A stretch of DNA of 64,000 bases from an uncultured Candidatus Saccharibacteria bacterium (GCA_964583675.1 CAZOVH010000001.1:17754-81753); one strand, 5' to 3'; shown: positions 20,201-63,786, counted from the first letter of the stretch. The notes: generated by a model not told the origin, from the sequence alone. Numbers and translations: made by a program.

Positions 20201-22529
20201 AATCTGCCTGACCAACTGCGCAAGTGGATTGCGATATGTCGTAAGCTGATTCATTATTATATTCCGGACCATTATTGTGCCTGAAGCTATACTTACCCGG
20301 ATACACATTCCTTACAATCGCCAGGTTATTTTCCGAAGAATTACCATTTTGTGAAATTTGACCGGTCCTAGCATCAAGAGTATAGCCATATCTTAAAGGT
20401 CCCTGTCCGGAAAGGAACTGAGCTTGAGTAATGCGATTATTTCCACCCTCCGTGGTGCAATAAAATCCAGTATTCGCCGCACCGCCATAATCATAGCCAG
20501 GCTTGGTGGGGATATAGTCTTTACTAGCACAATTACCGTACCCGCCGGCAGGATCTCCGAGATCAGTTCCCGGTGTTACAGTATTCGCAACTCCAACGGT
20601 GTTCATCCTTACCGGTCGAACCTCCACGTCCGTACAAATGTTCCTCTTATAATCATTGTAGTTACATGGATTTAGATCGGTATTCGCAGACGTATTGCCT
20701 CCCTGCATGTCAATCTTACCGCGAACTTGAATTGTGACTGGCGCTGGCTTAAAGAAGAAGGTGACCCAAACTTGCCCACCGGTTGGAATCGCCACTCCGT
20801 TTATACTTGGTGTTGTGCCCTGGTAGTTAACCGTTACGGTATGCTCCGTCTGACCATTACCCTCAAGAATTATCTGACCCTGTGTTTGGTTATTTGGTGC
20901 TGCCGCAGCATCATTTGAGGCACAGCTTGATATCTGAGTGGCGGAGACACAATAGGCATAGCCACGTATCTGCCAGCCTGCTGGAGCTACTGCTCGAACA
21001 CCATAAGTTCCAGACGTGGAGTTGTAGTTTACGGCCCGATTCCAAGCGCCCGCCTGGTTATTGCCCGAAACAGTCTGACCAGCAACATCAATCGTTCCGG
21101 TGCCAAGGTTTGTCGTATCGCTATTTTGATTACTATTAAACGTGCCAGGCCCCTTTTTATCACCCTTCACGATTATTTGGTTTGGCTCGAGCACAAAGAA
21201 CACCGGGCGATACCGCCATGCCGTGAGTGTAGTCACAAACTGAGAAGTAGCACCTCCCTGTCCAGCAGATGTATAGCAAGTATTCCTATCGGTGTTCTGG
21301 CCACACTGTATTGTGCTAACAATTCTCCATCCTGCCGGAATATTCGCAGCAGAAACTGTATAGCCCGCCGCCGCAGGGCCTTTATCATCCGCATATAAGC
21401 CTGCTACATCGGCGCTACCATTTGATGATCTACCTGGCGTTACAGTGGTTGGCCCCGCAGTATAAGACTTCTGAGTGCCGGAAGGCAAATTAAATCGACG
21501 TGTTACCGTAATATCTGGGGCATTATCACACGCGCCAGCCTGATAATCAGACTGATTACAAGGGTTTGAGAGCGTGCCAGTTGCTGGATCTCGCACTAAA
21601 ATACCCGCCTGAATAGTCGAAGGCTTTGGCTCGTAATAGAAATCTAATGATTGCGTCGAACCTACTGGTGTCGTGCCTGCGGGGAAGCCGTAATAGTTCT
21701 GATTGCCAGAAGTACCATTCGACAATCGCCATCCGGTCGCCACCCAATCGGCTGTATCCACGGCCTGAATAATATGCGCTAATGCCTGATTTCTACCCGG
21801 CAAGCTGTATGGCTGGGTCACGCTTGTGTCCCCAATATTGTTGTCGCGAATCGTCGCACCGGAAGGCTGGCCACTCTGCAGGCCATAGCGATCTAACTTA
21901 ACCCCATTCACATTAAAACTAGGCGGATTTTCTTCATACACAAAGAAAACTTGTGTTTCACCGCCGTTATTTGCTTGAGCCGCGACTACGTTACTTGCCG
22001 CCCAGCTGCTTGCCCTCGTGACTGCTCCGCCGTCTATCCATTGCCAATATGCCACCCAATTACCACCATTGCTCGTAAACGTAGAGCCAGGCTTAGGGAT
22101 AGCAGATACTTGTACATGAAAATCTCCGGGCGCTAGACCATTAAGCGGTACACCGCACCAAGCAAAATTTGCAAAGCTAGTTACAAGCATAGTACTGCCA
22201 GGAGGAGCGAGGTATCCATTCCCCCAAGTTTGTGCAAAGCCCCAATCAGCCGGATATACATAAGTATTAGTTGTCGGATTACCTCCTCCCGGAGAAAGGT
22301 GATATCCATTATAGGGTGGTTGTGTAATTGGTACTTTTCCAGGAATCCCCATCGTATCTATCCGAATATCAACATCGCCTAGATTTTGCGTAACTCCTGT
22401 GTACCACGGCTTGAAGGCAACCCCTACGGTAATACGCGCTGGGTTGGCATGAGCGACGGTGGAAAGTGCGAAAAACACCGCTATGAATGTAGTTAACGAA
22501 ATTGATGCGCGTAAAAGTACTTTTCTCAT
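17235..22529 (-). CDS. Giant secreted surface protein (1764 aa), paralogous C-terminal module shared with 23648..27649
   Basis: Sec signal peptide (MRKVLLRASISLTTFIAVFFALSTVAHA|NPA). Composition is rich in G/N/T/Y/W. Internal ~300-aa repeats start with FYYxPKP..IQ and NPCN.xDY(Q/K)....C. The C-terminal region aligns with the 1333-aa ORF (PWLRVQNGNVTALGEI, FCSTNFYMLGF, LPNLGI, RIDASLYAAGKV, GFTFGRNYVDF, PPPGFE, terminal PKF). Confidence 0.8.
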   Translation of the reverse strand: MRKVLLRASISLTTFIAVFFALSTVAHANPARITVGVAFKPWYTGVTQNLGDVDIRIDTMGIPGKVPITQPPYNGYHLSPGGGNPTTNTYVYPADWGFAQTWGNGYLAPPGSTMLVTSFANFAWCGVPLNGLAPGDFHVQVSAIPKPGSTFTSNGGNWVAYWQWIDGGAVTRASSWAASNVVAAQANNGGETQVFFVYEENPPSFNVNGVKLDRYGLQSGQPSGATIRDNNIGDTSVTQPYSLPGRNQALAHIIQAVDTADWVATGWRLSNGTSGNQNYYGFPAGTTPVGSTQSLDFYYEPKPSTIQAGILVRDPATGTLSNPCNQSDYQAGACDNAPDITVTRRFNLPSGTQKSYTAGPTTVTPGRSSNGSADVAGLYADDKGPAAAGYTVSAANIPAGWRIVSTIQCGQNTDRNTCYTSAGQGGATSQFVTTLTAWRYRPVFFVLEPNQIIVKGDKKGPGTFNSNQNSDTTNLGTGTIDVAGQTVSGNNQAGAWNRAVNYNSTSGTYGVRAVAPAGWQIRGYAYCVSATQISSCASNDAAAAPNNQTQGQIILEGNGQTEHTVTVNYQGTTPSINGVAIPTGGQVWVTFFFKPAPVTIQVRGKIDMQGGNTSANTDLNPCNYNDYKRNICTDVEVRPVRMNTVGVANTVTPGTDLGDPAGGYGNCASKDYIPTKPGYDYGGAANTGFYCTTEGGNNRITQAQFLSGQGPLRYGYTLDARTGQISQNGNSSENNLAIVRNVYPGKYSFRHNNGPEYNNESAYDISQSTCAVGQADCSSSVAPNADISGCLLNHRRKAEFTAVSQFLWWTIYTPIIGVNNPNAAVDPNGQNYCTIMWSGAPGADSWSAGGSPESWNIGGNTPRECAFIPTGGWAYFPQWNTTTGQYGINAQGNGPCGYRKDSGAAGVNTYSMGVPVGTNFREQTFYYAPKFKLTNEALTCDTYTANLVYMPDPSRPVTTYFRINGNSNLMRTETSTGNDIMEITTQTSGPDAYRVDVNIPKYNGQGGILLKDGDDRQFEMFARFSDSSSGAVDSDLVAGYSSGARDFGNAGGSWKYSPRRVSSPGLMHQCRNDAVCDQQGFENQLDAISVMDADYPQSNEIEVTMQNTGESFWQQGYRDGNNNGAVPGTYHELVVTGGTLVTNNQYDTRAWYIPDVQRQIEGGNEVTPVALNPGASSYTFKIIPTPPKDGGTKFVLGFQMRQAKPASQGGFTQIFGSACQGDFEIKVSYKPWLRVQNGNVTALGEIENQPESARGVYKAENRTNGSPYKGSFESAPAPADAKPAINLHAQFTAAAEKGGSNFCSTNFYMLGFAKGQRTAPQPSDPYGQAEANAPQKSRNCSFDSVNLNIEQAEDSNGDGQKELKNSQMVAAANRAYSEYGQCSDTGTTPDVDDGPQELSPPAKYYRSWAPGSPIDTPSLLWLLRDRPDSNSNLPFGTHNAGPQADRGLYLVNTNAPRPCPTIFKLQTSGSGAITEPNMELGGFIYNAGRSTIVSDDTVYITGNIEARYPTDNSLPYTFQKTGVPDMAGLNKLPNLGIISAKNIVIASNVDRIDASLYAAGKVITCDLYIAEGGLNEDAAKTDKPGTTGSKWIRRGGALSLDSNPLATETEDPNIDEAPSADNVTASGCSNKLRITGSVTGGEGFTFGRNYVDFAGMVERWRVNEGGAFQEFGKFCNLSDVLGIRRVCNLSGERKDFDSPGNRGATNYYWLENRAGWPQNYYTGGPAEDIVGNGLSSFMPPPGFEDITASTNTAKYYNNTARPKF

Positions 22530-23647: not shown

Positions 23648-26600
23648 CTAGAAACGTGGATCGGCGTTGTCTGTGACGTAGCGAGCCTGTGAAAAGTCAG
23701 GTTTCGTGAGATGCTCAAAGCCAGGAGGTGGAGCGATAAGCATGAGGCCATTAAAGATCACGTCTTCGGCTGGCTTACCATAATACAAACTGCGTCGTGG
23801 ATCGTAGTCAAAATCCGCACTAAACTGAGCTCGGCCTGTTCGGGCCTGGATCGCCGAAAAGTCGACAAAGTTTCTACCAAACATAAATCCGCCTTTTGAA
23901 GCCATCACACCACGCACCGAAAGCTGATTCTTACATCGAGCTGCCTGGGAGTTTTGCTGCACATTACTACCCGATAGCGTTTCACTCTTAAATCCGTTTG
24001 AGGTCAATGGGTTGTCATTACCGGTTGCGCCCGGACTGTATAGCTCTTCACAGGTGCGAATCTTACCACTCGCATACAAAGATGCATCAATTCTCGTAAC
24101 ATCTTTATCGATGATAATATCACCCTTAACCAGGATACCCAGGTTCGGTAATGCGTTGAGGCCAACCAAATCGTCACGATTAAAGGTCGCGTCCTTTGGC
24201 GTGTTTACGACATTAGCATTGAGATAGAGATTTCCGTCAACAATGATGGTCATACGTCCAGTCGGCTGGAAAAGAGCTGGCGTAGAAACAGGGCTAGGAT
24301 TCACGGTAGTTCCGAGTGTAAGATAGCCAGCTCGAGGCACCGTCAGCTTAGTTATTTCTGGACACGCACTCGACATTGCCGGTAAATTCTGACCATTGTA
24401 GTTCCTATCTAGACCTTTCTTATAGCGGGCTGACCCACTCGTTGCAGGACCGGCAGCTGGACAGTCATCAGGAGCCTCATCCCAGGCATCTTCCGCATCT
24501 CTATAGACTACTTCTTCAGTAGGATTCAAGGCACTAAGCGCATCAGCAAGACCAGACCGGAGATTAAATTTATACTGATCAAAGTCACACCCATCTGGGT
24601 AGAATGAAGTGCCATCAGCTTGATCTCTTCCTAAGACATAAGCATTCGTACTACAGAACGGACCGTTACCTGCAACATGCGACATTACAAGATATGTTAC
24701 TTCTAGATTTAGATCATCGCGCTGCCCATCAACCGGAGGAGCAGGCTCTGCATTCGCGTCTCTGCGGCCGCCCAAATTCCCACCAGTAGCACTGAGTGCT
24801 TCTTGACCCTGAATTTTACCTATAGCACTCACATTTCCGTTTTGCGTACGCAACCATGGACCATATGATGAAAGCACCCTAATGGAAGTTCCACAGGTAC
24901 CGCCAAATGCGATTGGTGCGCTTCCGTCGCTCGGTACAAACTCCATAGTAAATACCAAAGGCGTCGAAGCATCAGACGGAGCTTTAATAAGCGTTAGTGT
25001 AGGAGCAAACTCCAAGCTATCCACATTGCCACTCGCAGCCGGAGCTGGGTAAATGTTTCCAGAAACTGCGCTTGAGGTAATCTCCCAGAACTCACGTGAT
25101 TCCGCTGTCAGCCCCAGACGATACGAACCGCTCGGATAAGTTGCCCATATCGCTTGCCCATTATTCTGCATGCCAACCTTTATATTACCCTCGCTATCAC
25201 CCGTGCTCAGTGTTGCGCGGCCATTCGGGAAAATTGTTGCAAGGTTATTACTGACACACTGAGCATTCCTCGGACACACCAAAGTTCCGGTACCGTTGGT
25301 GCCAACCCCGATATCCACACCATCAACAATCAAGCGAATTTGTACCGCGCGCGCCACCCCATCCTTGTATTTTTCAGGAACTGTGAAGTTAAAATTACGT
25401 CCTTGCTTGATGACTTCTCCTGAACTATCGGTTAAATCTTCACCCCCGACACGTGCGTACACTTCGATATCCGCTGCGCCACCGCCCGATATACTTCCAG
25501 AAATCGTAGGACAGATTACATTTAAGCTCACTACCGTTGGTCTTCTACGGAAAATCCAATCAACATCAAGAGTTGCGCCATTACCAACCGAACCACCCAC
25601 GTACGTGTAAGTTGCAGAACGCACAATTGGCCCGTTATTCACTCGATAACCATACACATCGTATCCAGCTTCAGCATCTACAGTGAAGGAATGCCCCTGG
25701 TCTGCGCGCAAGTTTGCAAATGAATATGGTTGCGCGCTACTAGTAAGTCCATTTGGCTGCTCTCGGACTGTATTGTCTCGATAAGCCCCTGTAGTGGCTC
25801 CATCTTCTTCTTGCTTTTCACCCGATACAGTCATCAGTGGTGGGTCAACCTGCGGTGGAGGTGATTTCTTCATCTTTACATTAATCGAGTAGCCCAAAGA
25901 ACCATTGGCGATGCCCTGATAGAGATCTGACGGAATACGATAATGATCGTCATAGGCAGAGGCCCTATCCTGCACTATCCACTGATTCGTAAGAAGCGTA
26001 ACGGTAAATTGACTGGCGTCTCGGTAGTTCACTGGCTGATAGCCAACGACAGTGTTAAAGCGGAATTCCCAACCCGTATAACAGCTCAACGCAAAGACCC
26101 ACGGATTGTTCTGATGATCGTACACATCCCAGCTCGCTCTGCCGCCCCAGTAACCAAAGTTCAATACTCCATATGCACCAACTATCGGAGCTGGCTCATC
26201 GTTACAGGCTGCTTGCACATTGCCCGTACTGAGAATCTGCATTGTAGCCACTGCGGCACCCTTGTCGTCTCGCATTTGTTTAAGCGGGATGAGCTGGCCC
26301 GTGTCATAATCTGTATAGATGATACTCATCGGCAACGTGTGGTTCGTAAAACAATTAACCGCTGCTGCTCGGGCTGAAGGAATAAGAGCCTGTCGAGCGG
26401 AATCGATGAGACCCGTTGCACCGCCGCTGGCTGGGTTATTGATATCTAAATTGTTTTGCTGATCATCAACCTCGGGGAGCGAGTAATATTCGTTGCTATA
26501 CTTAGCCGATTCCAGGTACTGCTGGATGAGCTGGTCAAGAGACTCCGTATCACCCTGCACTCTATTCGTCGCACGGAAGATGGCATAATACCCCACCTTA

Positions 26601-27649
26601 GATTTAAAGACCTTAGTATTCTCACCAACTGCCAGGCGTGAAATATAATCTATATCCCGTTCACCTTCTGGGTATTGTTGGAAAGTTGCATACATTGTCT
26701 CGTTCAGGCGAGGATACTCCGCTGTTCTGACCCATGGCGCTCCGGGGGTTTCCATCTTTTTATCAAATTCTGCATCACTGCTGTACGGGCTAATATCGGC
26801 AGCTCGGTAGATCTCTTCTTTACTTGCACCGCGCTCAAACAGGGGCAAGAAATCTCGTTCCAAGCGAGCCTTAGCCTCTTTCTCATATGTTTCCTTTTCT
26901 TGAGTACTAGCATCAGCCCCAAACTGGTCCCAGCGAATATATACACCAAATGTATCGGTTCCGCTCGTTGCGGTATCAGCAAGAACTTCACGGTAATATT
27001 CCGTACAGACCTTCATAAATGTAACACTTGAATCCCAGCCATACTCTTGCTTTAAGTAGGCGTAAAATGCATCTTTACCGCCCTGTGACTGGTATTGAGG
27101 AGACATGCGCGTATCAACAATCTCCTGAGTGCAGGTAATATTTTTCTTAGCTGCTTCAGCCTTCAATGCCAGATAAGTTAGTAGGTCGCGAGATGCAGTA
27201 GCGGCAATCAAGTTAGCATCTTCTGGAGACGACTGCTTATTATTAAATCCTTGATACGAAGCCTTTACTTTATCAAACTCGTCCAAGCTTGCCGTCTGAT
27301 CACCTACTTCTGCAAAATTGCCAGCGCTTGGCCTTGGCTTACCGATTGAATCGAGCAGTCGGGTACCCTGTAAAAGCCAGATTACCGAAAGACTCGTAAT
27401 GACGAACAAGCCGATAAGGCCAGCAAAAATAGCTACTTTCTTTTTATTTACTGGCTTCTTCGGCTGCTGTGGTTTACCAACACTAGACTCAATCTTCTTT
27501 GGTGGTTCGTAGTTTTTTGGCTTAATCGCTTCACCAGCCTGAGTCGGCGCGCCTTTTGGACGCACAACCTCACCCGCCTTGTGTTCAGCGACTGGCTTCA
27601 CCTGTTTTTTATCTGGCCGAGGGCCAATGCTATCGATCGATTTTGGCAT
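23648..27649 (-). CDS. Giant surface protein (1333 aa) with signal-anchor, paralogous C-terminal module shared with 17235..22529
   Basis: The K/P-rich cytoplasmic N-terminus (~70 aa) is followed by a single TM (VAIFAGLIGLFVITSLSVIWLL). The large extracytoplasmic region is rich in G/T/N/S. The C-terminal ~420 aa are homologous to the 1764-aa protein (PWLRTQNGNVSAIGKI, FCSTNAYVLG, LPNLGI, RIDASLYASGKI, GFMFGRNFVDF, PPPGFE, terminal PRF). Confidence 0.8.
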   Translation of the reverse strand: MPKSIDSIGPRPDKKQVKPVAEHKAGEVVRPKGAPTQAGEAIKPKNYEPPKKIESSVGKPQQPKKPVNKKKVAIFAGLIGLFVITSLSVIWLLQGTRLLDSIGKPRPSAGNFAEVGDQTASLDEFDKVKASYQGFNNKQSSPEDANLIAATASRDLLTYLALKAEAAKKNITCTQEIVDTRMSPQYQSQGGKDAFYAYLKQEYGWDSSVTFMKVCTEYYREVLADTATSGTDTFGVYIRWDQFGADASTQEKETYEKEAKARLERDFLPLFERGASKEEIYRAADISPYSSDAEFDKKMETPGAPWVRTAEYPRLNETMYATFQQYPEGERDIDYISRLAVGENTKVFKSKVGYYAIFRATNRVQGDTESLDQLIQQYLESAKYSNEYYSLPEVDDQQNNLDINNPASGGATGLIDSARQALIPSARAAAVNCFTNHTLPMSIIYTDYDTGQLIPLKQMRDDKGAAVATMQILSTGNVQAACNDEPAPIVGAYGVLNFGYWGGRASWDVYDHQNNPWVFALSCYTGWEFRFNTVVGYQPVNYRDASQFTVTLLTNQWIVQDRASAYDDHYRIPSDLYQGIANGSLGYSINVKMKKSPPPQVDPPLMTVSGEKQEEDGATTGAYRDNTVREQPNGLTSSAQPYSFANLRADQGHSFTVDAEAGYDVYGYRVNNGPIVRSATYTYVGGSVGNGATLDVDWIFRRRPTVVSLNVICPTISGSISGGGAADIEVYARVGGEDLTDSSGEVIKQGRNFNFTVPEKYKDGVARAVQIRLIVDGVDIGVGTNGTGTLVCPRNAQCVSNNLATIFPNGRATLSTGDSEGNIKVGMQNNGQAIWATYPSGSYRLGLTAESREFWEITSSAVSGNIYPAPAASGNVDSLEFAPTLTLIKAPSDASTPLVFTMEFVPSDGSAPIAFGGTCGTSIRVLSSYGPWLRTQNGNVSAIGKIQGQEALSATGGNLGGRRDANAEPAPPVDGQRDDLNLEVTYLVMSHVAGNGPFCSTNAYVLGRDQADGTSFYPDGCDFDQYKFNLRSGLADALSALNPTEEVVYRDAEDAWDEAPDDCPAAGPATSGSARYKKGLDRNYNGQNLPAMSSACPEITKLTVPRAGYLTLGTTVNPSPVSTPALFQPTGRMTIIVDGNLYLNANVVNTPKDATFNRDDLVGLNALPNLGILVKGDIIIDKDVTRIDASLYASGKIRTCEELYSPGATGNDNPLTSNGFKSETLSGSNVQQNSQAARCKNQLSVRGVMASKGGFMFGRNFVDFSAIQARTGRAQFSADFDYDPRRSLYYGKPAEDVIFNGLMLIAPPPGFEHLTKPDFSQARYVTDNADPRF

Positions 27650-51672: not shown

Positions 51673-54421
51673 CCCAATCCTTTCCTGTTTCTACTTCCAC
51701 GACAATCGGCACCTCGAGCTTAATCACATCCTCCATGGTGTCTTTCATAATTTTCGTAACTTCATCCTGAAGCTTAGTGTCGCATTCCACAATGAGTTCG
51801 TCATGAATCTGCAAAATCATATGCGCTGTGCCATTTAGTTTAGCCAATTTTGGTGCCAACTGAATCATTGCTAATTTCATCATATCTGCCGCTGTACCCT
51901 GGAGAGGCATGTTCACTGCTTGTCTCTCAGCAGCAGAGCGAACAATAAAATTACTCGATTTTACATCTGGACACGGGCGCCTTCGGCCATACAAAGTTTC
52001 AGTATAACCTTCGTCATGAGCCTGTTTTTTAATGCGGCGAATGTAATCGGCAACGCCACGACGCAACTCAAAGTAGCGATCAATAAAGGCCTTACTATCT
52101 TCATAGCTCATGCCGGTCGCAACCGATAGTCCATGCGTATTCATGCCGTATAGCACACCAAAATTGATAGTTTTAGCTCCGTAGCGCTGCTCTTTAGTAA
52201 CTTCTTCTGGCTTTACGCCGTGCATTTGAGCAGCTGTGAGTGTATGAATATCGATACCAGACTTAAAATCTTCAATCATCTGAGTATCTCCTGCCATCGC
52301 AGCAGCTAGACGTAGCTCAATCTGACTGTAATCGGCCGCTACGAGGACCTTGCCTTTCTTAGCAACAAAAGCCCTGCGGATTTCGCGCCCTAGAGGTGTA
52401 CGTACTGGAATATTCTGTAGATTCGGATCACTACTAGAAAGCCGGCCAGTCTGGGCGATGGTCTGGTTATAGCTAGTGTGGATTCGACCATCCGACTCGT
52501 TTACGAGTAGTGGCAAGGCATCAACATACGTGCTCTTCAGCTTGCTTATTTCGCGATATTCAAAAATTAGCTCAATAATCGGGTGTCTTCCGCGCAGCTT
52601 TTCTAGTTCTGTGGCTGCCGTAGAAATACCGGTCTTACCCTTTTTCAAATCGCTGTGCTCAATTTTGAGCTTATCAAATAATACCGACTTAAGTTGCTGG
52701 GTCGAGGCAATATTAAACTCACCTTCAGCATAATCCCAAATCTGCTTCTGCACTTCAGCAAGACGCTTAGCGAGACGAGCCGAAAATTCAGCAAGGAAAT
52801 CTGTGTCGAGAGTGACCCCTTGCAATTCCACGTCTCCCAAAACCGGTATCAAAGGCCACTCCAAAGTTTCGCCCACTTCAGTTAACTTACCAATCTCACC
52901 TAAACGCGGCTGCAGAACTTCATAGAGACGCCAAGTTATATCGGCATCCTCCGCGGCATACTGACCAGCTTGAGCAATCTCTGTCTCCGCAAAAGTTTTC
53001 TGCCCCTTACCTTTCTGACCTATCAGTTCAGTTATTTCAATCATCTCAATGCCAAGCTCAGACAGAGCCAAGCCAGAAAGTGTCTGCGCCCGTCCAACAG
53101 GGCTTATCAGAAATGCAGCAATCATGGTGTCAAAAACAATCCCCTGCATGTGCACACCAGCCTGACGCATTATCTGGTAATCATACTTTATATTGTGGCC
53201 AACCTTTCCAATTTCTGGACTTTGCAATATTGGGCCGAGTACATCTAAAACCGTTGCAACGCTCAGCTGATCCCCGGCTGTATGCCCAACTGGAACGTAA
53301 TATGCTTCGCCAGCCTTCCAAGCAAAACTTAAGCCTACTAGCCCTGCCGTCATAACGTTAAGCCCTGTGGTTTCCGTATCAAAGGCAATAACCCTTTGTG
53401 TACTCAATGCTTTTGCAAGCTTTTCGAGCGCATCACGATCTTGTACAATCTCATACTTTGCCGTCTTCAAATGATCTCGAAGCAGTTTTTGCGGTTGCTT
53501 CTCCACTCCATAGATTTCATCAAAAAGATTTGGCTGCTGCGCGTCTTCTTGCTGATTCTTGGGTAATTTCGCAATCAGCGATCTAAATTCCAACTCCGTA
53601 AAGAGCTGTACGACTTTATCGCGATTAAAGCGATGCAGTCTAGCTTTCTCCAGATCGAACTCAAACTCAACATCGCACACAATCCGCGAAAGCTCCAAAG
53701 AATGATAGGCGTCTTCCTTACCCTCCTCAAGTTTTTTACGAACAGCTGGTTTGAGTTCATCCAAATTTGCATATATACCGTCCAGCGTTTTGTATTTCTG
53801 CACTAAATCGGTGGCAGTTTTTTCACCAATCCCCTTCACCCCAGGAATGTTATCGCTCGAATCGCCTTTTAGGGCCTTAGTAACCAAAAATTCTTCGGGA
53901 TTAACCCCATAGCGCCCCTCAACTGCCTTCACATCATATAAGACCGTATCGGAAAAACCTCGGCGCAGCGTATACACCCGCACATGCTCATCAACAAGCT
54001 GCAGCTCATCCATGTCACCAGTCACAATTACCACATCATGTGTTTTCTTATGTTGTGCGGCCAACGTACCAATCACGTCATCGGCTTCGTACCCCTCAAC
54101 ACCAATAACCGGAATTTCAAAAACATCCAACAAGTTTCGAGTTACATCAAACTGCGGCACAAGATCAGCATCCGTCTCCTTACGCGTACCCTTGTACTCC
54201 TTATACATATCATGCCGAAACGTCTTGCCAGGCATATCCCACGCCACAACCACATATTCTGGCTGCAGCTCCTTAATCGCATTCAAGAGCATCATCGTAA
54301 AACCATACACCCCATTGGTTGGCGTACCGTCCTTGGTGGAAAGATACGGAATAGCGTGAAAACCTCGATGCAAAAGCGCGTGCCCATCGAAAATTGCTAT
54401 ACGTGATCTGGTATTTACCAT
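51659..54421 (-). CDS. polA: DNA polymerase I
   Basis: 5'-3' exonuclease, 3'-5' exonuclease and polymerase domains are present (RIHTSYNQTIAQTGRLSSSDPNLQNIP; YSQIELRLAA; motif C ILQIHDELIV). The ORF-track start at 54484 adds about 21 aa. The ATG at 54421 (MVNTRSRIAIFDGHALLHR) fits the conserved N-terminus better. Confidence 0.9.
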   Translation of the reverse strand: MVNTRSRIAIFDGHALLHRGFHAIPYLSTKDGTPTNGVYGFTMMLLNAIKELQPEYVVVAWDMPGKTFRHDMYKEYKGTRKETDADLVPQFDVTRNLLDVFEIPVIGVEGYEADDVIGTLAAQHKKTHDVVIVTGDMDELQLVDEHVRVYTLRRGFSDTVLYDVKAVEGRYGVNPEEFLVTKALKGDSSDNIPGVKGIGEKTATDLVQKYKTLDGIYANLDELKPAVRKKLEEGKEDAYHSLELSRIVCDVEFEFDLEKARLHRFNRDKVVQLFTELEFRSLIAKLPKNQQEDAQQPNLFDEIYGVEKQPQKLLRDHLKTAKYEIVQDRDALEKLAKALSTQRVIAFDTETTGLNVMTAGLVGLSFAWKAGEAYYVPVGHTAGDQLSVATVLDVLGPILQSPEIGKVGHNIKYDYQIMRQAGVHMQGIVFDTMIAAFLISPVGRAQTLSGLALSELGIEMIEITELIGQKGKGQKTFAETEIAQAGQYAAEDADITWRLYEVLQPRLGEIGKLTEVGETLEWPLIPVLGDVELQGVTLDTDFLAEFSARLAKRLAEVQKQIWDYAEGEFNIASTQQLKSVLFDKLKIEHSDLKKGKTGISTAATELEKLRGRHPIIELIFEYREISKLKSTYVDALPLLVNESDGRIHTSYNQTIAQTGRLSSSDPNLQNIPVRTPLGREIRRAFVAKKGKVLVAADYSQIELRLAAAMAGDTQMIEDFKSGIDIHTLTAAQMHGVKPEEVTKEQRYGAKTINFGVLYGMNTHGLSVATGMSYEDSKAFIDRYFELRRGVADYIRRIKKQAHDEGYTETLYGRRRPCPDVKSSNFIVRSAAERQAVNMPLQGTAADMMKLAMIQLAPKLAKLNGTAHMILQIHDELIVECDTKLQDEVTKIMKDTMEDVIKLEVPIVVEVETGKDWGELD

Positions 54422-54471
54422 ACTCCAGATTATACCTGGTTTTTTGTAAGTTCGGGTGCAATAATAACCGT

Positions 54472-54747
54472 ATGAGTGAATCAAGAAGTCCCCACGAAGA
54501 TATTGTAGGAAGCTCTGAGGTTGATCCAGACGACATCCGTCGCTTTCTCAAGGCGACAAAAAAGGATGAAGTAGTTCATGCGCCAGGTCCAGCAGCCAAT
54601 CTTGCGGAAACTGCGGAGGAGCGCGCGGAGGCAACAACTGAGCCAGAGATATCTGAGGACTATTACCAGCACCAACTTGAACAATTGCGCAAATTAAGGC
54701 GCGAACGAGAAGATGGCGAACCTCCTGCCGATGACACTCAACAATAA
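54472..54747 (+). CDS. Small acidic hypothetical protein
   Basis: About 91 aa starting from the internal ATG at 54472 (MSESRSPHED...). Strongly acidic with coiled-coil-like character (EDYYQHQLEQLRKLRREREDGEPPADD). Divergent from polA. Coding status is uncertain. Confidence 0.3.
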   Translation: MSESRSPHEDIVGSSEVDPDDIRRFLKATKKDEVVHAPGPAANLAETAEERAEATTEPEISEDYYQHQLEQLRKLRREREDGEPPADDTQQ

Positions 54748-57789: not shown

Positions 57790-58356
57790 CTAATCAATCA
57801 ACTCCAGTATCTCTGGAAATGTAGCCATGCCACGACTGCCTAAAAAATGCCCCTTATCGGCGAACATAATGAGCTTGGCGTCCAGCTTATGAGCCAGGCG
57901 TCGCGTACGGTCGGGAGTAACAATTGCGTCATCAGAAGATCCAATACATATAAATTCGGTGCTAAGAGTACGGATACTCTGCCAATTTGGCTCGGGTTCA
58001 AAAAACTTACTCGCCGAATCATTAGGCGCATCATAAAAACCACTCACCAGCAACACTCTCCTGATAGATTCTTTAACTTGACCGCCCTCTAGCAAGCGAA
58101 GAGCTAAGAAGCATCCGAGCGAGTGAGCTATGATAATATCGTTGCCACCTAACCCCTCGGCCGCGCTTGCAACTTGCTCACTCCAGCGCTGCATAAGTGG
58201 CCTCACATCAGTCTTCATATGTGGAGCACGCACTTCGTAACCTTCGGCTTGGAGGTGGTTGGCCAACCATCCAAGCCACCCTTCACTTGAGTCGTCATTC
58301 CAGCCATGAATTATGAGTGCTCTGGCGGGTTTTGTAGAGACAGTTTCTATCGCCAC
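57790..58356 (-). CDS. Small alpha/beta-fold serine hydrolase (YdeN/RBBP9-like)
   Basis: 188 aa. Nucleophile elbow IIIAHSLGCF (GxSxG-like) with downstream Asp/His candidates (SSDDAIV; KGHF). Confidence 0.5.
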   Translation of the reverse strand: MAIETVSTKPARALIIHGWNDDSSEGWLGWLANHLQAEGYEVRAPHMKTDVRPLMQRWSEQVASAAEGLGGNDIIIAHSLGCFLALRLLEGGQVKESIRRVLLVSGFYDAPNDSASKFFEPEPNWQSIRTLSTEFICIGSSDDAIVTPDRTRRLAHKLDAKLIMFADKGHFLGSRGMATFPEILELID

Positions 58357-59000
58357 TTCCAGGTTTTTACTACGCCAGCCATAACCTCAGACTGTTCCTT
58401 GGTGTCGTTCGGCGTAGAAATTAGAATACCCTCAATTGCTGCACCGGCACTATCAAGTTGATCGGTAGAATTTGTTTTTGCAAAAACCAGAATTTTCTTC
58501 TGATTCTGTTGAGTCGTCGTTAAACGAACTGCGTCTTGTCCATCAAGCTTGAAAGCTTCTTCAGAATCTATGGTCGTAGCACTCGCCTGCAACTGCTTCT
58601 TATACACCTCTAGGCTCTTGTCAAAACTTACCGCTCCACCTTCGTCAGGATACATCTTGGTTGGTGCAGCTATCAAAAGGTTTGCCTCACCGCTGCCGTA
58701 GCCTAAGTCTACTGCACAATATTGATTAACTCCCAAACTCACACTACGGGGCACTTCAAATGCGTAGCAATCCGTCTCAATTTTGCCAGTACCGCGCTGC
58801 TCGTTACCTTGCAGCTCACCTTGACCCACAACGTCTGCAGCTTCAGTATTTGTCCCTGCTTTTTTCTTATCGTCTGCAGTTTTCTTCGTAATTAACGTGA
58901 AAGTAATCAACCCGACCAAAGCTACAGCAGCAATGCCCAGGCCCAATGCCAAAAGGCGATATTTATGCTCATGATTTTGTGGCTGCATTATATTACTCAT
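58347..59000 (-). CDS. Membrane-anchored protein, member A of a tandem triplicated family (conserved Cys pair, C-terminal W-x-W)
   Basis: 217 aa. TM (LLALGLGIAAVALVGLITFTLI), then ETDCYAFEVP...QYCAVDLGYG, ending VKTWKWR. Paralogous to 59015..60160 and 60217..60822. Confidence 0.55.
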   Translation of the reverse strand: MSNIMQPQNHEHKYRLLALGLGIAAVALVGLITFTLITKKTADDKKKAGTNTEAADVVGQGELQGNEQRGTGKIETDCYAFEVPRSVSLGVNQYCAVDLGYGSGEANLLIAAPTKMYPDEGGAVSFDKSLEVYKKQLQASATTIDSEEAFKLDGQDAVRLTTTQQNQKKILVFAKTNSTDQLDSAGAAIEGILISTPNDTKEQSEVMAGVVKTWKWR

Positions 59001-59014
59001 GCTTCACTCCTAGC

Positions 59015-60160
59015 TCATTTCCATGACCAAGTAGAAAGAAACTGGTCAAACCCCTTACGGCTATAATCATCATTATACGCACCAGTCACAATAAAGGCGA
59101 CGAAATTCTTTTCACCAAACGTTCTATCACCTTCCGGCAGGATGATAAACACGTACGCAACATCAACACCAGAGGCAGCGTCTTTCTTGCCAACCACTTT
59201 TACAGCATCTAGTCCGCCGACCTTTATATCCTCCCGTGTGGTGACTAAATCTTTAGGAATAATGTCAGCTATCAAAGCTTCTAGATACTTTTGAGTATCT
59301 ATAGAATTCGAGCTATTTTGCGTATTTGTACCCGCATTTTCTTCTGTAGCTATATCGAATTGACCTAGTGCAGAAACGAATATTGAAGAAATTTTTTGTT
59401 CACCATATGTAATTGATAATGCACAGTCCTTATTCTGCTGTGTGTCCACCGGCGTGAGCGATTGCGCAACATAGCAGTCGGTAGCGACCTTCTCACTAAA
59501 GGGCTGCGTTGGCTTTTCTGTTTTATCACGCACCGAGCCAGCACTCGTAGAAGGAGTAGCTGTGGGGGTCGAATCTTTTCGTGAAGCAATGTATGCATAT
59601 CCCCCAATTGCTGCCAGCAAAACAACAACAAGGCCAACTGCTAAACCTACAATGAGACCAATTGGCTTGCGCTTTGCAGTGTTGGCAACAGGTAATGTCG
59701 AAGATGCAGCTGGAGCCGGTGCAATATTTTCTGGGGCACCACCAAATGGCATAGCCTGAGATGTCGACTGCAGACCGCCGGCATGCATGTCGTCACTGCG
59801 TGGCACAGGAGCAAGTCGAACAGGTGCGGGCTTAATCGGCGAGTTACTCAATTCACTCACAGTTGGCTGCGCGGTAGCCACTGGCAATACCGGCTCACTT
59901 TGTGGCTCGGCGAGAGGACTAGGTGTTGGTGCTAGTGGCGCTGGCTGATTAGTTACGTCAGGTGCGGGCATAGGGTTTGGCAGTGTAGCTTCGGGCGCCG
60001 TCGGAGGGATTGGTGGCAGCTGAGAGGTGCCCCCCTCATAGCCCTGAGCTAACGGATTACGAAACACGGGTACGTCATCAGCAGATGGTTGAAGGGGCGT
60101 TGAACCTGGTGGCTCTGGCGCGGGCATTGGCTGGGGTGCGTTGGGGTCGTTTGGATTCAT
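59015..60160 (-). CDS. Membrane-anchored protein, member B of the triplicated family, with a long Pro/Ala-rich cytoplasmic N-terminus
   Basis: 381 aa. About 160 aa of P/A/S-rich N-terminus, a TM (IGLIVGLAVGLVVVLLAAIGGYAYI), then VATDCYVAQSL...NKDCALSITYG, ending LSTWSWK. Confidence 0.55.
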   Translation of the reverse strand: MNPNDPNAPQPMPAPEPPGSTPLQPSADDVPVFRNPLAQGYEGGTSQLPPIPPTAPEATLPNPMPAPDVTNQPAPLAPTPSPLAEPQSEPVLPVATAQPTVSELSNSPIKPAPVRLAPVPRSDDMHAGGLQSTSQAMPFGGAPENIAPAPAASSTLPVANTAKRKPIGLIVGLAVGLVVVLLAAIGGYAYIASRKDSTPTATPSTSAGSVRDKTEKPTQPFSEKVATDCYVAQSLTPVDTQQNKDCALSITYGEQKISSIFVSALGQFDIATEENAGTNTQNSSNSIDTQKYLEALIADIIPKDLVTTREDIKVGGLDAVKVVGKKDAASGVDVAYVFIILPEGDRTFGEKNFVAFIVTGAYNDDYSRKGFDQFLSTWSWK

Positions 60161-60216
60161 AAAAATAGCTACTTGTTATCTTAAAGTATAGCATGAGCTC
60201 TTTCGTGCAAGAACAG

Positions 60217-60822
60217 CTAAAATCGCCACTGCCAATCTTGTAGAACTTCGACTGCAAACACACGGTCAGGCTCTGTTGTTGCCCAAGCACGCAGCTCGAA
60301 AGCAGTAATTGGCTCCTGCCCATCAACGCGAATGGAATCTTCCAAAAATACAAGGTACGAAACAAAGCTCTCATTGTTTTGAGGATAGAATTCTTCCAAA
60401 CGCCAGCCGGTTCGTCCACCCACTATCACGCGATCGCGAGATTTTTCTACAGCACCAAGGGTCAACCACCGCTGACGCCAGTTTTCAATCATGGCTTCTT
60501 CACTCTGGGCACCATAGTATGGCGACACCTGAAAATATGTATATTTACGAGGGCGAGCGTAAGCTCCCGTGAGACAATCGGGATTACTCGTAATCTCAAA
60601 GTCTGCAGGTATATAAAACTCATAGCAACGAGTCTCCACCCTAGTCTGATCCGGCTTTTCTTCCAAGACCAAAGGTTTTGGCCTAAATTGTTGACCATCC
60701 TGTCGGCTAACCCAAAGCCGCCAACCGAATATACCTAAAAAGAACCCCATCACTACGAGCAGTCCAAAAAATATAGCCCGAGAAAATAATTCTTCCCGGC
60801 GGTGACGAGCAATTTTAGTCAC
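60217..60822 (-). CDS. Membrane-anchored protein, member C of the triplicated family
   Basis: 201 aa. TM (IFFGLLVVMGFFLGIFGWRLWV), then ETRCYEFYIPADFEITSNPDCLTGAY, ending LQDWQWRF. Its start overlaps the arginase-family stop (ATGA). Confidence 0.55.
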   Translation of the reverse strand: MTKIARHRREELFSRAIFFGLLVVMGFFLGIFGWRLWVSRQDGQQFRPKPLVLEEKPDQTRVETRCYEFYIPADFEITSNPDCLTGAYARPRKYTYFQVSPYYGAQSEEAMIENWRQRWLTLGAVEKSRDRVIVGGRTGWRLEEFYPQNNESFVSYLVFLEDSIRVDGQEPITAFELRAWATTEPDRVFAVEVLQDWQWRF

Positions 60823-61721
60823 GACGCGTCAGAGCGCAAATAGTCCTGATAACTATTCCACTCTCCCCCCAGCAATTTCATGGTGAGCTCTTGTGCCAAC
60901 CTTACAGTCTTACCTTCAACATCTCTAGTTGGATTCACCTCCACCATATCTACAGCTACCGGGTTAAGGGAGCCCAATTTACGGGCAATGTATTCAGCTT
61001 CGCGATACGTCAGCCCGCCAGCGTTTTGTATTCCTGTGCCGGGTGCAAACTGGGCGTCAATCGCATCTATGTCATAGCTTACGTGCACTGGCCGATCACC
61101 TGCCCACGTGGCGACTTGCTGCATTACTGCACCAATGCCTTGCTCAAGAATCCCATCCATCGAAGCATGGGCAATTTTTTGTTCCGCCAGCCAGTGCGCT
61201 TCTTCAATATCAATATCTTTAATGCCCACCAAAAAGATTTCAGACGGTGCGTAATAAGGCCCGGGGAATAATTTTGTAAGCGTGTCGCCAGCCGCGATCC
61301 TAAGGGGCAAACCATGAATATTGCGCGTCTCAGAAGATTCCAATGTGTGTGCATCAGGATGCGCATCTACATACACGCAAACCGCATCCGGATAACGCTG
61401 CTTGGTGGCCAAGAGACTTACCGCACCGATGGAATGATCACCGCCAAGCACCAAAGTTTTTTCGTCGTAAGATGTGTTTCCAGCAAGCTGCCGATACAAT
61501 TCCTGTAACCATGGCAAGAGGGTTGTAGCATTCCTCAAGCCAAGTTCTTCATAATTTTTATCTTCACCAACAGCTGAAACTTCTGAGATTTTTAACGCCC
61601 AATCATCCCCCACCAGGGCGTCACGCAACCCCGACTCCAAAAGTACCTCGGGTGCAGTCTCGCAACCATGGTTCACACTACCTTCGGACGTACCGGCGCA
61701 TACAACGTGCAATTTCTTCAT
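60819..61721 (-). CDS. Arginase/agmatinase/formiminoglutamase-family ureohydrolase
   Basis: 300 aa. Mn-binding motifs are present: GGDHSIGAVSL, DAHPDAH and SYDIDAIDAQFAPGTG. Confidence 0.75.
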   Translation of the reverse strand: MKKLHVVCAGTSEGSVNHGCETAPEVLLESGLRDALVGDDWALKISEVSAVGEDKNYEELGLRNATTLLPWLQELYRQLAGNTSYDEKTLVLGGDHSIGAVSLLATKQRYPDAVCVYVDAHPDAHTLESSETRNIHGLPLRIAAGDTLTKLFPGPYYAPSEIFLVGIKDIDIEEAHWLAEQKIAHASMDGILEQGIGAVMQQVATWAGDRPVHVSYDIDAIDAQFAPGTGIQNAGGLTYREAEYIARKLGSLNPVAVDMVEVNPTRDVEGKTVRLAQELTMKLLGGEWNSYQDYLRSDAS

Positions 61722-61751
61722 CGCTCTTCATTATCAACCATAGCGACAGTC

Positions 61752-63101
61752 ATGAGAAGCCTGGCCCAACCACAAAAAACGTTTACAATAGAGACTATGC
61801 TACATCGCTTGAAGAAACTCGTACCAAAAAGTGCCGTAAATGGTTTCCATTATTTTGAAGCCTTGGCAGCCGGCTTCGCATATCGCCATCCAAGTCGCCA
61901 CATGGTTATAATCGGCGTGGTTGGCTCTAAGGGTAAAACCACTCTAGCCAACTTGCTCTGGGCAGCCCTATCCGGCGACGGATCAAAAGTAGGGCTTATC
62001 GGCACTGCTAATATTCGGATTGGTCACGAAGAACGCCTCAATCCTTACCATATGACAATGCCTGGGCGTCATCGAATGCAAAAAGTTCTTGCCGAAATGC
62101 GCCAAGCTGGCTGTCACTATGCGGTTATGGAAGTGCCCTCGGAAGGTCAGGCACAATGGCGTCATGTCGGTATTTACTTTGATATGCTAATTTTTACCAA
62201 CGTCACGCGTGAGCTGATGGCGAGCCACAACTACTCGCTCGACATTCTACACGAGCATAATAAGCGCGTGTTCGCCAGTCTCTCACAGAAACCCAAAACC
62301 GTTCAGGGCCGCTTGCAACCAAAAATCCTGATCGCCAACTCTGACGCTGAGCATTTTACACAATATTTTGAACACATCGCCGACATCAAGCGCAGCTATT
62401 CGGTGACTAAAAAAAGCGACTATCGAGCCACGCGTATAGAAACCTCTCCACGAGGAGCCGAGTTTGTCATAAATAAACATTCATACCACATCCCAATACC
62501 GGGTGCGATCAACGTCAGCAATGCTGCTGGTGCCATTGCCGCCGCCCTCGAGCTAGGTAAGTCTCCGCAGGTGATTGCGCGCGGCTTAAGTGAGTTAAGT
62601 GTCATTCCGGGTCGTATGGAGCGCATCGAAGCTGGTCAGAAATTCCATGTCATAGTCGACTACGCACATGAAGAAACTGGTATGCAAGCCCTGATGGATA
62701 GCGCTCAAGATATGGTGCAAAAAGGCAGTAAAATCATAACTTTACTGGGGGCCGAAGGTGGTGGGCGCGACGAGCTCAAGCGACCAATTATGGGTGAAAT
62801 TGCCATGCGCGGCAGTGACTACGTAGTCCTCTCAAATGTCGATCCTTATCGTGACGACCCCGAAAAGATCATTGACGATATTGCTACTGGAGTCGAAGAG
62901 GCTAGCGGTAAGCTCAATGAAACATACTGGCGAATTACCGATCGACGAGCCGGAATCGCAAAAGCCCTATCTCTCGCAACCGACAATGATCTGGTGTTAA
63001 TCACCGGTAAAGGTGCCGAGCAATCAATCGTTATTGGAGGTAAAAAAACAGCTTGGGACGACCGTCAAGTAGTACGCGAGGAACTAAAAAAACTGCGCTA
63101 A
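61752..63101 (+). CDS. murE: Mur ligase, most consistent with UDP-N-acetylmuramoyl-L-alanyl-D-glutamate ligase MurE
   Basis: P-loop IGVVGSKGKTTLANLL, Mur-ligase central and C-terminal domains, and a C-terminal LITGKGAEQSIVIGGKKTAWDDRQVVREEL resembling the MurE tail. The start is taken at the internal ATG 61752 because the ORF-track start at 61668 overlaps the convergent arginase gene. Confidence 0.7.
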   Translation: MRSLAQPQKTFTIETMLHRLKKLVPKSAVNGFHYFEALAAGFAYRHPSRHMVIIGVVGSKGKTTLANLLWAALSGDGSKVGLIGTANIRIGHEERLNPYHMTMPGRHRMQKVLAEMRQAGCHYAVMEVPSEGQAQWRHVGIYFDMLIFTNVTRELMASHNYSLDILHEHNKRVFASLSQKPKTVQGRLQPKILIANSDAEHFTQYFEHIADIKRSYSVTKKSDYRATRIETSPRGAEFVINKHSYHIPIPGAINVSNAAGAIAAALELGKSPQVIARGLSELSVIPGRMERIEAGQKFHVIVDYAHEETGMQALMDSAQDMVQKGSKIITLLGAEGGGRDELKRPIMGEIAMRGSDYVVLSNVDPYRDDPEKIIDDIATGVEEASGKLNETYWRITDRRAGIAKALSLATDNDLVLITGKGAEQSIVIGGKKTAWDDRQVVREELKKLR

Positions 63102-63529
63102 AGTGTGTGGCTAGAGCTATTTAAAAAGCCAACAATAATTGCCGTCCACCACATAAGTTGTGAGATGGAGATCAGTACTATGCTACGCACTTGCAAGGCA
63201 CGTGGCAGCTCAAAGAACTTACTCTGCGGGGCCGCCTCCGTGGCCCTATGAAGACGATCAAGTAGTACTCCGTTGATTATTAAAATGACCACCGCCACCA
63301 ATTTCATTCGTGTGCGCGTTGAGATTTCATCTGGAAGCAAGATGGAGCCACTCACAACGAGCAAAACTACACTCACCCAAATCAGCTTCTGGGCAACATT
63401 ACTCACATTCAATACCAGCTTTTTATCAGTTTTACCGATAACCCACAGCGCACCAATCGTATCGACAAGCATCACCGCGCCAAAACCAACTGCAAAGGCA
63501 ATCAGGTGAACGAATAGCGCCAATTTCAT
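63098..63529 (-). CDS. Hypothetical integral membrane protein (about 4 TM)
   Basis: 143 aa with four hydrophobic helices. Its stop overlaps the murE stop region, convergent. Confidence 0.45.
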   Translation of the reverse strand: MKLALFVHLIAFAVGFGAVMLVDTIGALWVIGKTDKKLVLNVSNVAQKLIWVSVVLLVVSGSILLPDEISTRTRMKLVAVVILIINGVLLDRLHRATEAAPQSKFFELPRALQVRSIVLISISQLMWWTAIIVGFLNSSSHTL

Positions 63530-63786
63530 TGTGGACTTAATTCTCTACTTGGCTTATCGCTTTTAATATGGGCAATCACCGTCAGTGCACCGAGCATAAA
63601 GCTACACCACAAAATTGAGAGCGCCATCGCAGCCCAGATATTTTCAAAAATTAGATTGAGCCAAGAAATAACACCTGTTACCACTAGAAGCCATACAAAT
63701 ACCACAAGCCAACCCTGCCAGCTATTCGGCAGCCAGCCAGAACCTTTCTGACGTGCTTTAAACCAATTCTTTCGTTCGTTTTTCAT
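63526..63786 (-). CDS. Small hypothetical membrane protein (2 TM)
   Basis: 86 aa with two hydrophobic helices. Its start (ATGA) overlaps the stop of the upstream partial gene. Confidence 0.4.
   Translation of the reverse strand: MKNERKNWFKARQKGSGWLPNSWQGWLVVFVWLLVVTGVISWLNLIFENIWAAMALSILWCSFMLGALTVIAHIKSDKPSRELSPQ

Follow-up and report, generated by a model that had tools for sequence, protein, structure and literature searches.

The stretch of Candidatus Saccharibacteria DNA analysed here, 64,000 nucleotides (nt) long and called the window below, carries on its minus strand a co-directional run of five genes, three of which encode the membrane proteins designated C, B and A. In the direction of transcription, the order used throughout, the first gene encodes a cytoplasmic ureohydrolase of the arginase family (60819-61721, minus strand, 300 residues). 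It is followed by C (60217-60822, minus strand, 201 residues, GTG start), B (59015-60160, minus strand, 381 residues) and A (58347-59000, minus strand, 217 residues), and then by a YdeN/RBBP9-type alpha/beta serine hydrolase (57790-58356, minus strand, 188 residues, GTG start). A, B and C each possess one hydrophobic helix, the putative transmembrane (TM) segment (residues ~14-37, ~168-192 and ~16-38, respectively), and exactly two Cys residues (C78/C95, C229/C246 and C66/C83). Their ectodomains open with IETDCY, VATDCY and VETRCY, and their C-termini read TWKWR, TWSWK and DWQWRF. An initial annotation had listed the same five genes, and the features on which it built (one TM segment, the Cys pair, the opening motif, the W-x-W ends and a Pro/Ala-rich tail in B) are all present; a second Cys does follow the first, but at a spacing of 17 residues and not ~20.

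By profile comparison, A, B and C are genuine paralogues from a single family, homologous over the whole ectodomain, and the proposal of a tandem triplicated family thus holds. Pairwise BLASTP detects only weak similarity around the first Cys (E = 5e-4, 2e-4 and 0.089), a motif-limited result that by itself would speak against a common family, whereas alignment of profiles extends over the whole ectodomain. Each protein has its own orthogroup in public metagenomes, comprising 12 clusters for A, 30 for B and 9 for C. In profile-profile comparison with hhalign, A and B are matched with a probability of 98.2% (E = 3.6e-14) through the ectodomain only, and C and B (97.1%, E = 5.9e-11) and A and C (92.7%, E = 4.3e-7) are matched through the whole ectodomain plus the TM helix, the inclusion of which may inflate the latter two scores. 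As a control, a hidden Markov model (HMM) was built for each single ectodomain family and run against the 253 six-frame open reading frames (ORFs) of at least 70 residues in the window. With every one of these models the other two paralogues rank second and third (E = 5e-9 to 6e-3), and the best decoy has E >= 0.3. In the merged alignment both Cys residues, the Tyr after the first Cys and both Trp residues are invariant. The genes of A, B and C share no repeat at the DNA level except the W-x-W-R codons; a recent duplication can thus be dismissed, and the duplication is therefore ancient.

The ectodomain belongs to no family that sequence searches recognize, as the initial annotation had also stated. 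When A, B and C were compared with Pfam and NCBIfam, no model matched it at E <= 1, including the PsbP (PF01789), DUF1795 (PF08786), LpqN (PF10738) and Mog1 (PF04603) models. Likewise, neither library had a match for the ectodomain of ten distant family members at E <= 0.1, and the family profile retrieved nothing from the PDB sequences at E <= 10. Structure prediction, which had been suggested as a check, was more informative. The AlphaFold2 model of the B ectodomain (residues 209-381; 59018..59536, minus strand), computed from the merged 36-sequence alignment, has a mean predicted local distance difference test score (pLDDT) of 83.5 and a predicted TM-score (pTM) of 0.80, with low confidence only in a B-specific insertion loop. 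The model of full-length C (pLDDT 92.2) consists of a long N-terminal helix followed by the same order of strands and helices as in B; it was computed from C-type and distant short members, an alignment largely different from that used for B. Foldseek searches of the PDB with both models retrieve the Mog1/PsbP-like superfamily among the top matches, with a probability of 1.0 and TM-scores of 0.45-0.66. The best matches of C are PsbP 1v2b (TM-score 0.66 normalised to the target, root-mean-square deviation 4.0 A), 2xb3 and 9grx_0, and the top match of B is Tsi3 (3wa5_B, E = 4.2e-4). The PsbP-like matches comprise PsbP 1v2b, CyanoP (2xb3, 2lnj) and the PsbP-like NDH subunit PnsL (9grx_0), and further matches include BT_1490 (3hlz), 3lyd, LpqN (6e5d), MTC28 (4pws), Apa (5zx9) and DcrB (6e8a), as well as PA94/EagT6/SciW, Mog1 (1eq6), Tsi3 (3wa5), TplEi (5h7y) and Tli4. 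No substrate-binding protein structure is among the listed matches, and the models are single-domain rather than two-lobed Venus-flytrap structures. On these models, for B and C alike, the predicted ectodomain is a Mog1/PsbP-like alpha/beta sandwich, so that the family is new in sequence and its fold is a known one.

When 1.84 billion cluster representatives are scanned with the merged profile in HMMER, the family amounts to 154 clusters (50% identity) at E <= 1e-3, 67 of them at E <= 1e-10. Among 191 domain-bearing proteins examined for architecture, the domain is situated at the extreme C-terminus in 187, the Cys pair is kept in 182 and the W-x-W end in 172, so that C-[YF]...C...W-x-W at the C-terminus can serve as a diagnostic signature of the family. 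At least one hydrophobic helix lies upstream of the domain in 177/191 and exactly one in 165/191. An N-terminal region of more than 100 residues is present in 77/191, and in 71 of these it contains at least 12% Pro; 13/191 have two to four tandem copies of the domain. The usual architecture is a variable, often Pro-rich and presumably cytoplasmic tail, one TM helix and one to four C-terminal domains. Some members deviate in instructive ways. In P0067 two zinc ribbons precede the TM helix, on its N-terminal side, and two domain copies come after it; P0090 (1147 residues; L020 2966-6409) joins a signal-anchor to a Big_7 domain and four domain copies in tandem, and P0175 (813 residues) combines an SLH-containing N-terminal region with one domain copy. 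The conserved Cys pair, the zinc ribbons of P0067 and the Big_7 and SLH fusions together suggest that the ectodomain is extracytoplasmic and the tails are cytoplasmic, that is, an N-in, C-out topology predicted from sequence features, in which the two conserved Cys residues probably form a disulfide. Every family record with a taxon name is assigned to Candidatus Saccharibacteria or to the 'Patescibacteria group'; these few records and the synteny described below point to a family centred on Saccharibacteria. One ENA record, P0025, is identical over its N-terminal two-thirds to P0023, a close (92%) orthologue of B in the window, and over its C-terminal ectodomain half to the distant P0037 type. 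It is probably a chimeric assembly, or possibly a recombinant.

The gene block that contains A, B and C is deeply conserved and occupies a class-wide position. Related loci share the order MurE (divergent), arginase, [C], B, [A], hydrolase, DnaG, RpoD and, further on, PolA, where brackets denote optional genes. The full C-B-A trio is found in the window, L001, L002, L006, L007, L008, L010 and L012; C and B without A occur in L004/L015 and L016, and B alone in L003/L013, L005, L011 and L014 (L003 and L013 lie on the same contig, as do L004 and L015, and each pair is counted as one). L009, a 2.8-kb fragment, shows just B, A and the hydrolase gene. C is absent from L003, L005 and L011 although the arginase gene is present there. 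L014 has no arginase gene and keeps B, with both of its tail motifs, and the hydrolase. In three far more distant loci a long-tailed B-type gene directly follows the arginase gene: P0082 in L019 (profile E = 6e-14), accompanied by an extra diverged paralogue, P0113 in L022 (E = 2.4e-10), a locus with two paralogues, and P0103 in L021 (E = 1.0e-11), a 469-residue ORF. The hydrolase gene is kept in L019 and L022 and comes immediately after the last family gene throughout the block loci, with the sole exception of L021, which lacks it and whose flanks are rearranged in comparison with those of the other loci. Linkage to the arginase gene thus recurs in related and very distant loci, L014 excepted, which answers the question of co-occurrence that the initial annotation had raised. 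Family-specific HMM scores show that positional orthology holds in the closer clade and that the hydrolase-adjacent gene of the deep lineages is B-type. B is the ancestral copy, as every related block locus has one B-type gene, whereas C and A may be missing. Other family members, in L020, L023 and L024, have unrelated neighbours. In L021, the public call of P0103 (150 residues) is a truncation of the 469-residue B-type ORF (L021 7044-8450), which starts right after the arginase gene and is broken near its TM region by a run of N (X in the translation). A reverse-transcriptase (RVT_1) gene is situated at L021 1234-2313 (minus strand), a few kb upstream of the MurE-arginase pair and near a ParB_N gene.

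The rates at which these proteins diverge do not fit the diversifying surface proteins that were originally envisaged. Measured as identity to the proteins of the window in genomes of growing distance, the B ectodomain falls through 98, 90, 84, 64, 61, 59 and 42-44%, DnaG through 92, 79, 65, 60, 57 and 52% and the arginase through 96, 83, 70, 64, 58 and 49%. The B ectodomain therefore tracks two housekeeping-block neighbours and is as conserved as they are; C evolves somewhat faster (90 falling to 36%) and A fastest (92, 70, 65, then ~30%). A and C nevertheless form well-conserved orthogroups of their own, and each orthogroup has long invariant stretches, such as WRxRWLTLGA in C, GNEQRGxGKIE in A and, for B, TGAYNDDYSRKGFDQ. 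Conservation of this degree is too high for hypervariable surface antigens, which can be rejected, and indicates subfunctionalised paralogues.

B differs from A and C by an N-terminal tail of ~165 residues (59666..60160, minus strand), composed of 24% Pro and 14% Ala and without Cys, which is likely to be cytoplasmic and disordered. Across 25 orthologues the length and sequence of the tail vary, with the exception of two short motifs. The first, PVFRNPLA (residues 31-38; 60047..60070, minus strand), follows the family pattern PP[VA]FxNPLA, in which P31, F33, N35, P36 and L37 are invariant in the 25 orthologues. The second, PAPVRLAPVPRSDDMHA (residues 111-127; 59780..59830, minus strand), follows the pattern PAPVRLAPxP[RK]xDDxHA, in which A112, P113, V114, R115, L116 and A117 are invariant. 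The motifs were found in 30 of the 31 B-type representatives with long tails, and the distant B-type proteins P0080 and P0082 carry KAVRLxNV, related to the second motif. Their retention in the arginase-less L014 implies that they are not arginase-specific docking sites. The tail is followed by the single TM helix, IGLIVGLAVGLVVVLLAAIGGYAYI (~residues 168-192; 59585..59659, minus strand), and a hydrophobic segment occupies this position in all B orthologues. A role as anti-sigma factor was considered and discarded, as the tail lacks a Cys/His zinc motif and no extracytoplasmic function (ECF) sigma factor gene is adjacent.

The five genes of the run are closely packed. The arginase gene and C overlap by 4 nt, and since C begins with GTG the overlap reads GTGA, not the ATGA originally reported. 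C and B are separated by 56 nt and B and A by 14 nt, within which AGGAG precedes A, and the GTG start of the hydrolase gene overlaps the 3' end of A by 10 nt. This arrangement fits a single transcription unit; consensus scans for promoters and terminators between the genes scored at or below chance level and are not used as evidence. DnaG, RpoD and PolA come next on the minus strand of the window after the hydrolase gene. On the other side, a MurE-type Mur ligase gene (61668..63101, plus strand) diverges from the arginase gene, and its true start probably lies downstream of 61668. Two small multi-TM proteins of 143 and 86 residues are encoded beside it (63098-63529 and 63526-63786, both minus strand) and have no significant Pfam match. 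A pair of similar size is found at the same position in L001 and L003-L005, and in L019 and L022 a 143-residue gene lies there, next to a partner that differs in size. The interval between PolA and RpoD holds a 117-residue ORF on the opposite strand of the window (54394-54747, plus strand), and a gene for 99-154 residues without Pfam match occupies the equivalent opposite-strand position in L001-L005, L019 and L022. Elsewhere in the window there are two very large ORFs, of 1764 residues (17235-22529, minus strand) and 1333 residues (23648-27649, minus strand).

The neighbouring enzymes can be assigned more closely. The 300-residue ureohydrolase matches PF00491 (E = 5.2e-53) and scores 179.8 bits against TIGR01229 (rocF), under the cut-off of 227.6. 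Its closest PDB matches are without exception true arginases (E = 8e-34 to 1e-28), with agmatinases at 1e-17 or worse. GGDHS, DAHPD, the GIKDIDIEE loop, SYDIDAID and EVNP are recognizable, so that all motifs of the binuclear metal site are present, and these metal motifs are conserved in the related loci with a complete arginase; the 266-residue arginase of L021 matched no pattern. The initial annotation had recognized an arginase/agmatinase-fold ureohydrolase, and inspection of the metal site, as it advised, now places the protein as a predicted arginase-type enzyme, with L-arginine as a putative substrate. The hydrolase downstream of the family, likewise correctly recognized as a small alpha/beta serine hydrolase, scores 93.1 bits against PF06821 (E = 2.4e-26, cut-off 22) and aligns with YdeN of Bacillus subtilis (1uxo, E = 7.4e-21), the AHSLGC nucleophile motif included; neither an export signal nor a TM segment is present. 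MurE exceeds the cut-off of TIGR01085 with 297 bits. In alignments to 2wtz and 4bub it has VDPY in place of DNPR, the motif by which MurE recognizes meso-diaminopimelate (mDAP) (PMC3829189, PMC3681970); Staphylococcus aureus MurE has DNPA at this site (PMC3829189). NVDPY was recovered in 10 of 16 related MurE sequences, including the deep L019 and L021; the pattern search had no match in the other six, where the motif was not read. The observation on MurE concerns the window and L001, L003-L005, L007, L008, L010-L016, L019 and L021. The MurE gene divergently adjoins the arginase gene in the close loci, is co-directional with it in L021 and lies within a few genes of it in L019. This substitution might reflect L-ornithine, or else L-Lys, at position 3 of the wall peptide, with the arginase as a possible source of ornithine.

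Taken together, these observations lead us to favour, with moderate confidence, a reading in which A, B and C are bitopic membrane proteins of ancient duplicate origin that carry extracytoplasmic PsbP-fold modules for binding or scaffolding, with B as the ancestral core. The ectodomain would be a disulfide-stapled Mog1/PsbP-like sandwich on the outer face of the membrane, with the W-x-W strand last. By analogy with LpqN, DcrB, MTC28/Apa, Tsi3 and CyanoP, bacterial members of the same fold, it most likely has no enzymatic activity and serves as a binding or scaffold module, either for a protein or for a ligand of the envelope. In B this outer domain would be joined through one TM helix to the long disordered cytoplasmic tail, the two short linear motifs of which presumably serve to dock a partner in the cytoplasm. 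A and C would be tail-less accessory paralogues that probably work alongside B, possibly as a hetero-oligomer, as suggested by the two to four domain copies on single polypeptides elsewhere in the family, and the genes would be co-transcribed inside a deeply conserved housekeeping block. Several points weigh against this reading. The TM helix of A has more Lys on its C-terminal than on its N-terminal side, which, taken by itself, speaks against an N-in orientation. The TM-scores to solved structures are just ~0.45-0.66 at 7-15% identity. The binding or scaffold function is proposed by analogy of fold, and the Mog1/PsbP-like fold serves roles as different as photosystem subunit, immunity protein, chaperone and lipoprotein adaptor. 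Finally, the whole MurE-to-PolA block is syntenic across the group, and adjacency is therefore weak evidence of shared function; the co-location with the arginase, MurE and hydrolase genes may be functionally meaningless.

The initial annotation had put forward a substrate-binding or sensor set for arginine, agmatine or polyamines, coupled to the arginase. We now regard this model as very unlikely, even though adjacency to the arginase gene recurs in close and very distant loci and survives the rearranged flanks of L019, L021 and L022, the 4-nt GTGA overlap hints that translation of the arginase and of C is coupled, and the enzyme is of arginase type with its metal and alpha-amino-acid recognition motifs intact. 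The predicted fold is not the two-lobed one of periplasmic binding proteins, and no ATP-binding cassette (ABC) or other transporter, permease, ATPase, histidine kinase (sensor kinase) or chemoreceptor gene adjoins the family in the window or the related loci. The arginase is, moreover, dispensable in L014, which retains B with both tail motifs; C, the very copy that overlaps the arginase gene, is missing from the arginase-bearing L003, L005 and L011; and the family members in L020, L023 and L024 have other surroundings. The adjacency of arginase and B is nonetheless persistent, and a functional link between them is conceivable. Tsi3 as the top structural match of B, together with the retrieval of TplEi and Tli4, raises the further idea of immunity or protective factors of the Tsi3/TplEi type, acting against the organism's own or the host's wall- or membrane-degrading enzymes at the epibiont surface. 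Immunity genes typically form tandem paralogue arrays whose copy number varies, as it does here (1-3), and A and C do evolve faster than B. However, none of the loci examined has an adjacent gene for an effector, a toxin or a secretion system, the genes keep a fixed position in a core housekeeping block and not in a variable island, and B is highly conserved and has a long motif-bearing cytoplasmic tail for which an immunity protein has no need. We thus consider this idea improbable.

A role in cell-wall synthesis is suggested by the MurE gene, which lies near the arginase gene in the close loci, L021 and L019. According to this proposal, a non-mDAP MurE would use ornithine from the arginase, and B would, together with A and C, form a trans-membrane scaffold that couples precursor synthesis in the cytoplasm to wall assembly outside it. 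The replacement of DNPR by VDPY, with NVDPY read in 10 related MurE sequences, is in keeping with it; of the proteins that share the fold, DcrB acts in envelope biogenesis, and LpqN does so according to its PDB description. The proposal is drawn entirely from adjacency and a motif substitution, L014 has no arginase, and the loss of DNPR fits L-Lys equally well, as the DNPA of S. aureus illustrates (PMC3829189). A search of the literature on Saccharibacteria in combination with PsbP, arginase, ornithine or MurE returned nothing on the family or on the wall chemistry, and hence no peptidoglycan chemistry for these organisms. We rate the proposal as rather unlikely. Its most extended form, in which MurE, the arginase, one to three PsbP-fold TM proteins and the hydrolase constitute a Saccharibacteria-specific envelope module, with ornithine passed from the arginase to MurE, enzymes recruited by the B motifs and the outer domains in contact with the wall or the host surface, has in our judgment little probability. 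If it were true, the family would represent a lineage-specific component of the cell-surface machinery of the epibiont.

Under the binding or scaffold reading that we prefer, the proteins are mechanistically unsurprising, since the fold is common among bacterial envelope proteins. Even so, three 'hypothetical proteins' become a defined family with a fold, a signature, an architecture and a fixed position in a gene block. Saccharibacteria are epibionts of ultrasmall size, most of whose surface and envelope proteins lack annotation, and the family should be useful in annotating them. With its strong conservation, its single copy per block locus and its conserved cytoplasmic motifs, B is a reasonable target for genetics in tractable strains.

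Comparison with known systems places both the family and its enzyme neighbour. The arginase-family enzyme resembles RocF (EC 3.5.3.1) in its PF00491 domain, its Mn-ligand motifs and the DxDxxE loop that recognizes the alpha-amino group. It differs from the aligned arginase 5ynl in that the Asn after DAHxD (DAHADIN in 5ynl) is His in the neighbour enzyme (DAHPDAH); this Asn of 5ynl corresponds to Asn130 in rat arginase numbering. The proteins of the DcrB/DUF1795 group (PA94, EagT6, SciW) and the immunity proteins Tsi3 and TplEi have a related fold and act by binding other proteins. Their TM-scores to the present models are lower (0.29-0.5), the Eag chaperones are cytoplasmic, and type VI secretion system (T6SS) immunity proteins adjoin their effectors, whereas no effector-like gene occurs in any locus examined here. 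PsbP, CyanoP and PnsL (PF01789) share the same alpha/beta sandwich and are extracytoplasmic (lumenal), non-enzymatic binding subunits. A, B and C, in contrast, have no sequence-level match to them, belong to a non-photosynthetic host and have an N-terminal TM anchor, a Cys pair and a terminal W-x-W, to which B adds its long cytoplasmic tail. LpqN, MTC28 (Rv0040c) and Apa of mycobacteria are secreted proteins or lipoproteins with cleaved signal peptides and extracellular Pro-rich parts, whereas in the present family the TM anchor is uncleaved and the Pro-rich part is predicted on the cytoplasmic side, and identity is 7-15% with no HMM match. They have the same fold, however, are non-enzymatic and function in a bacterial cell envelope, and MTC28 and Apa, like B, join a PsbP-fold domain with Pro/Ala-rich segments.

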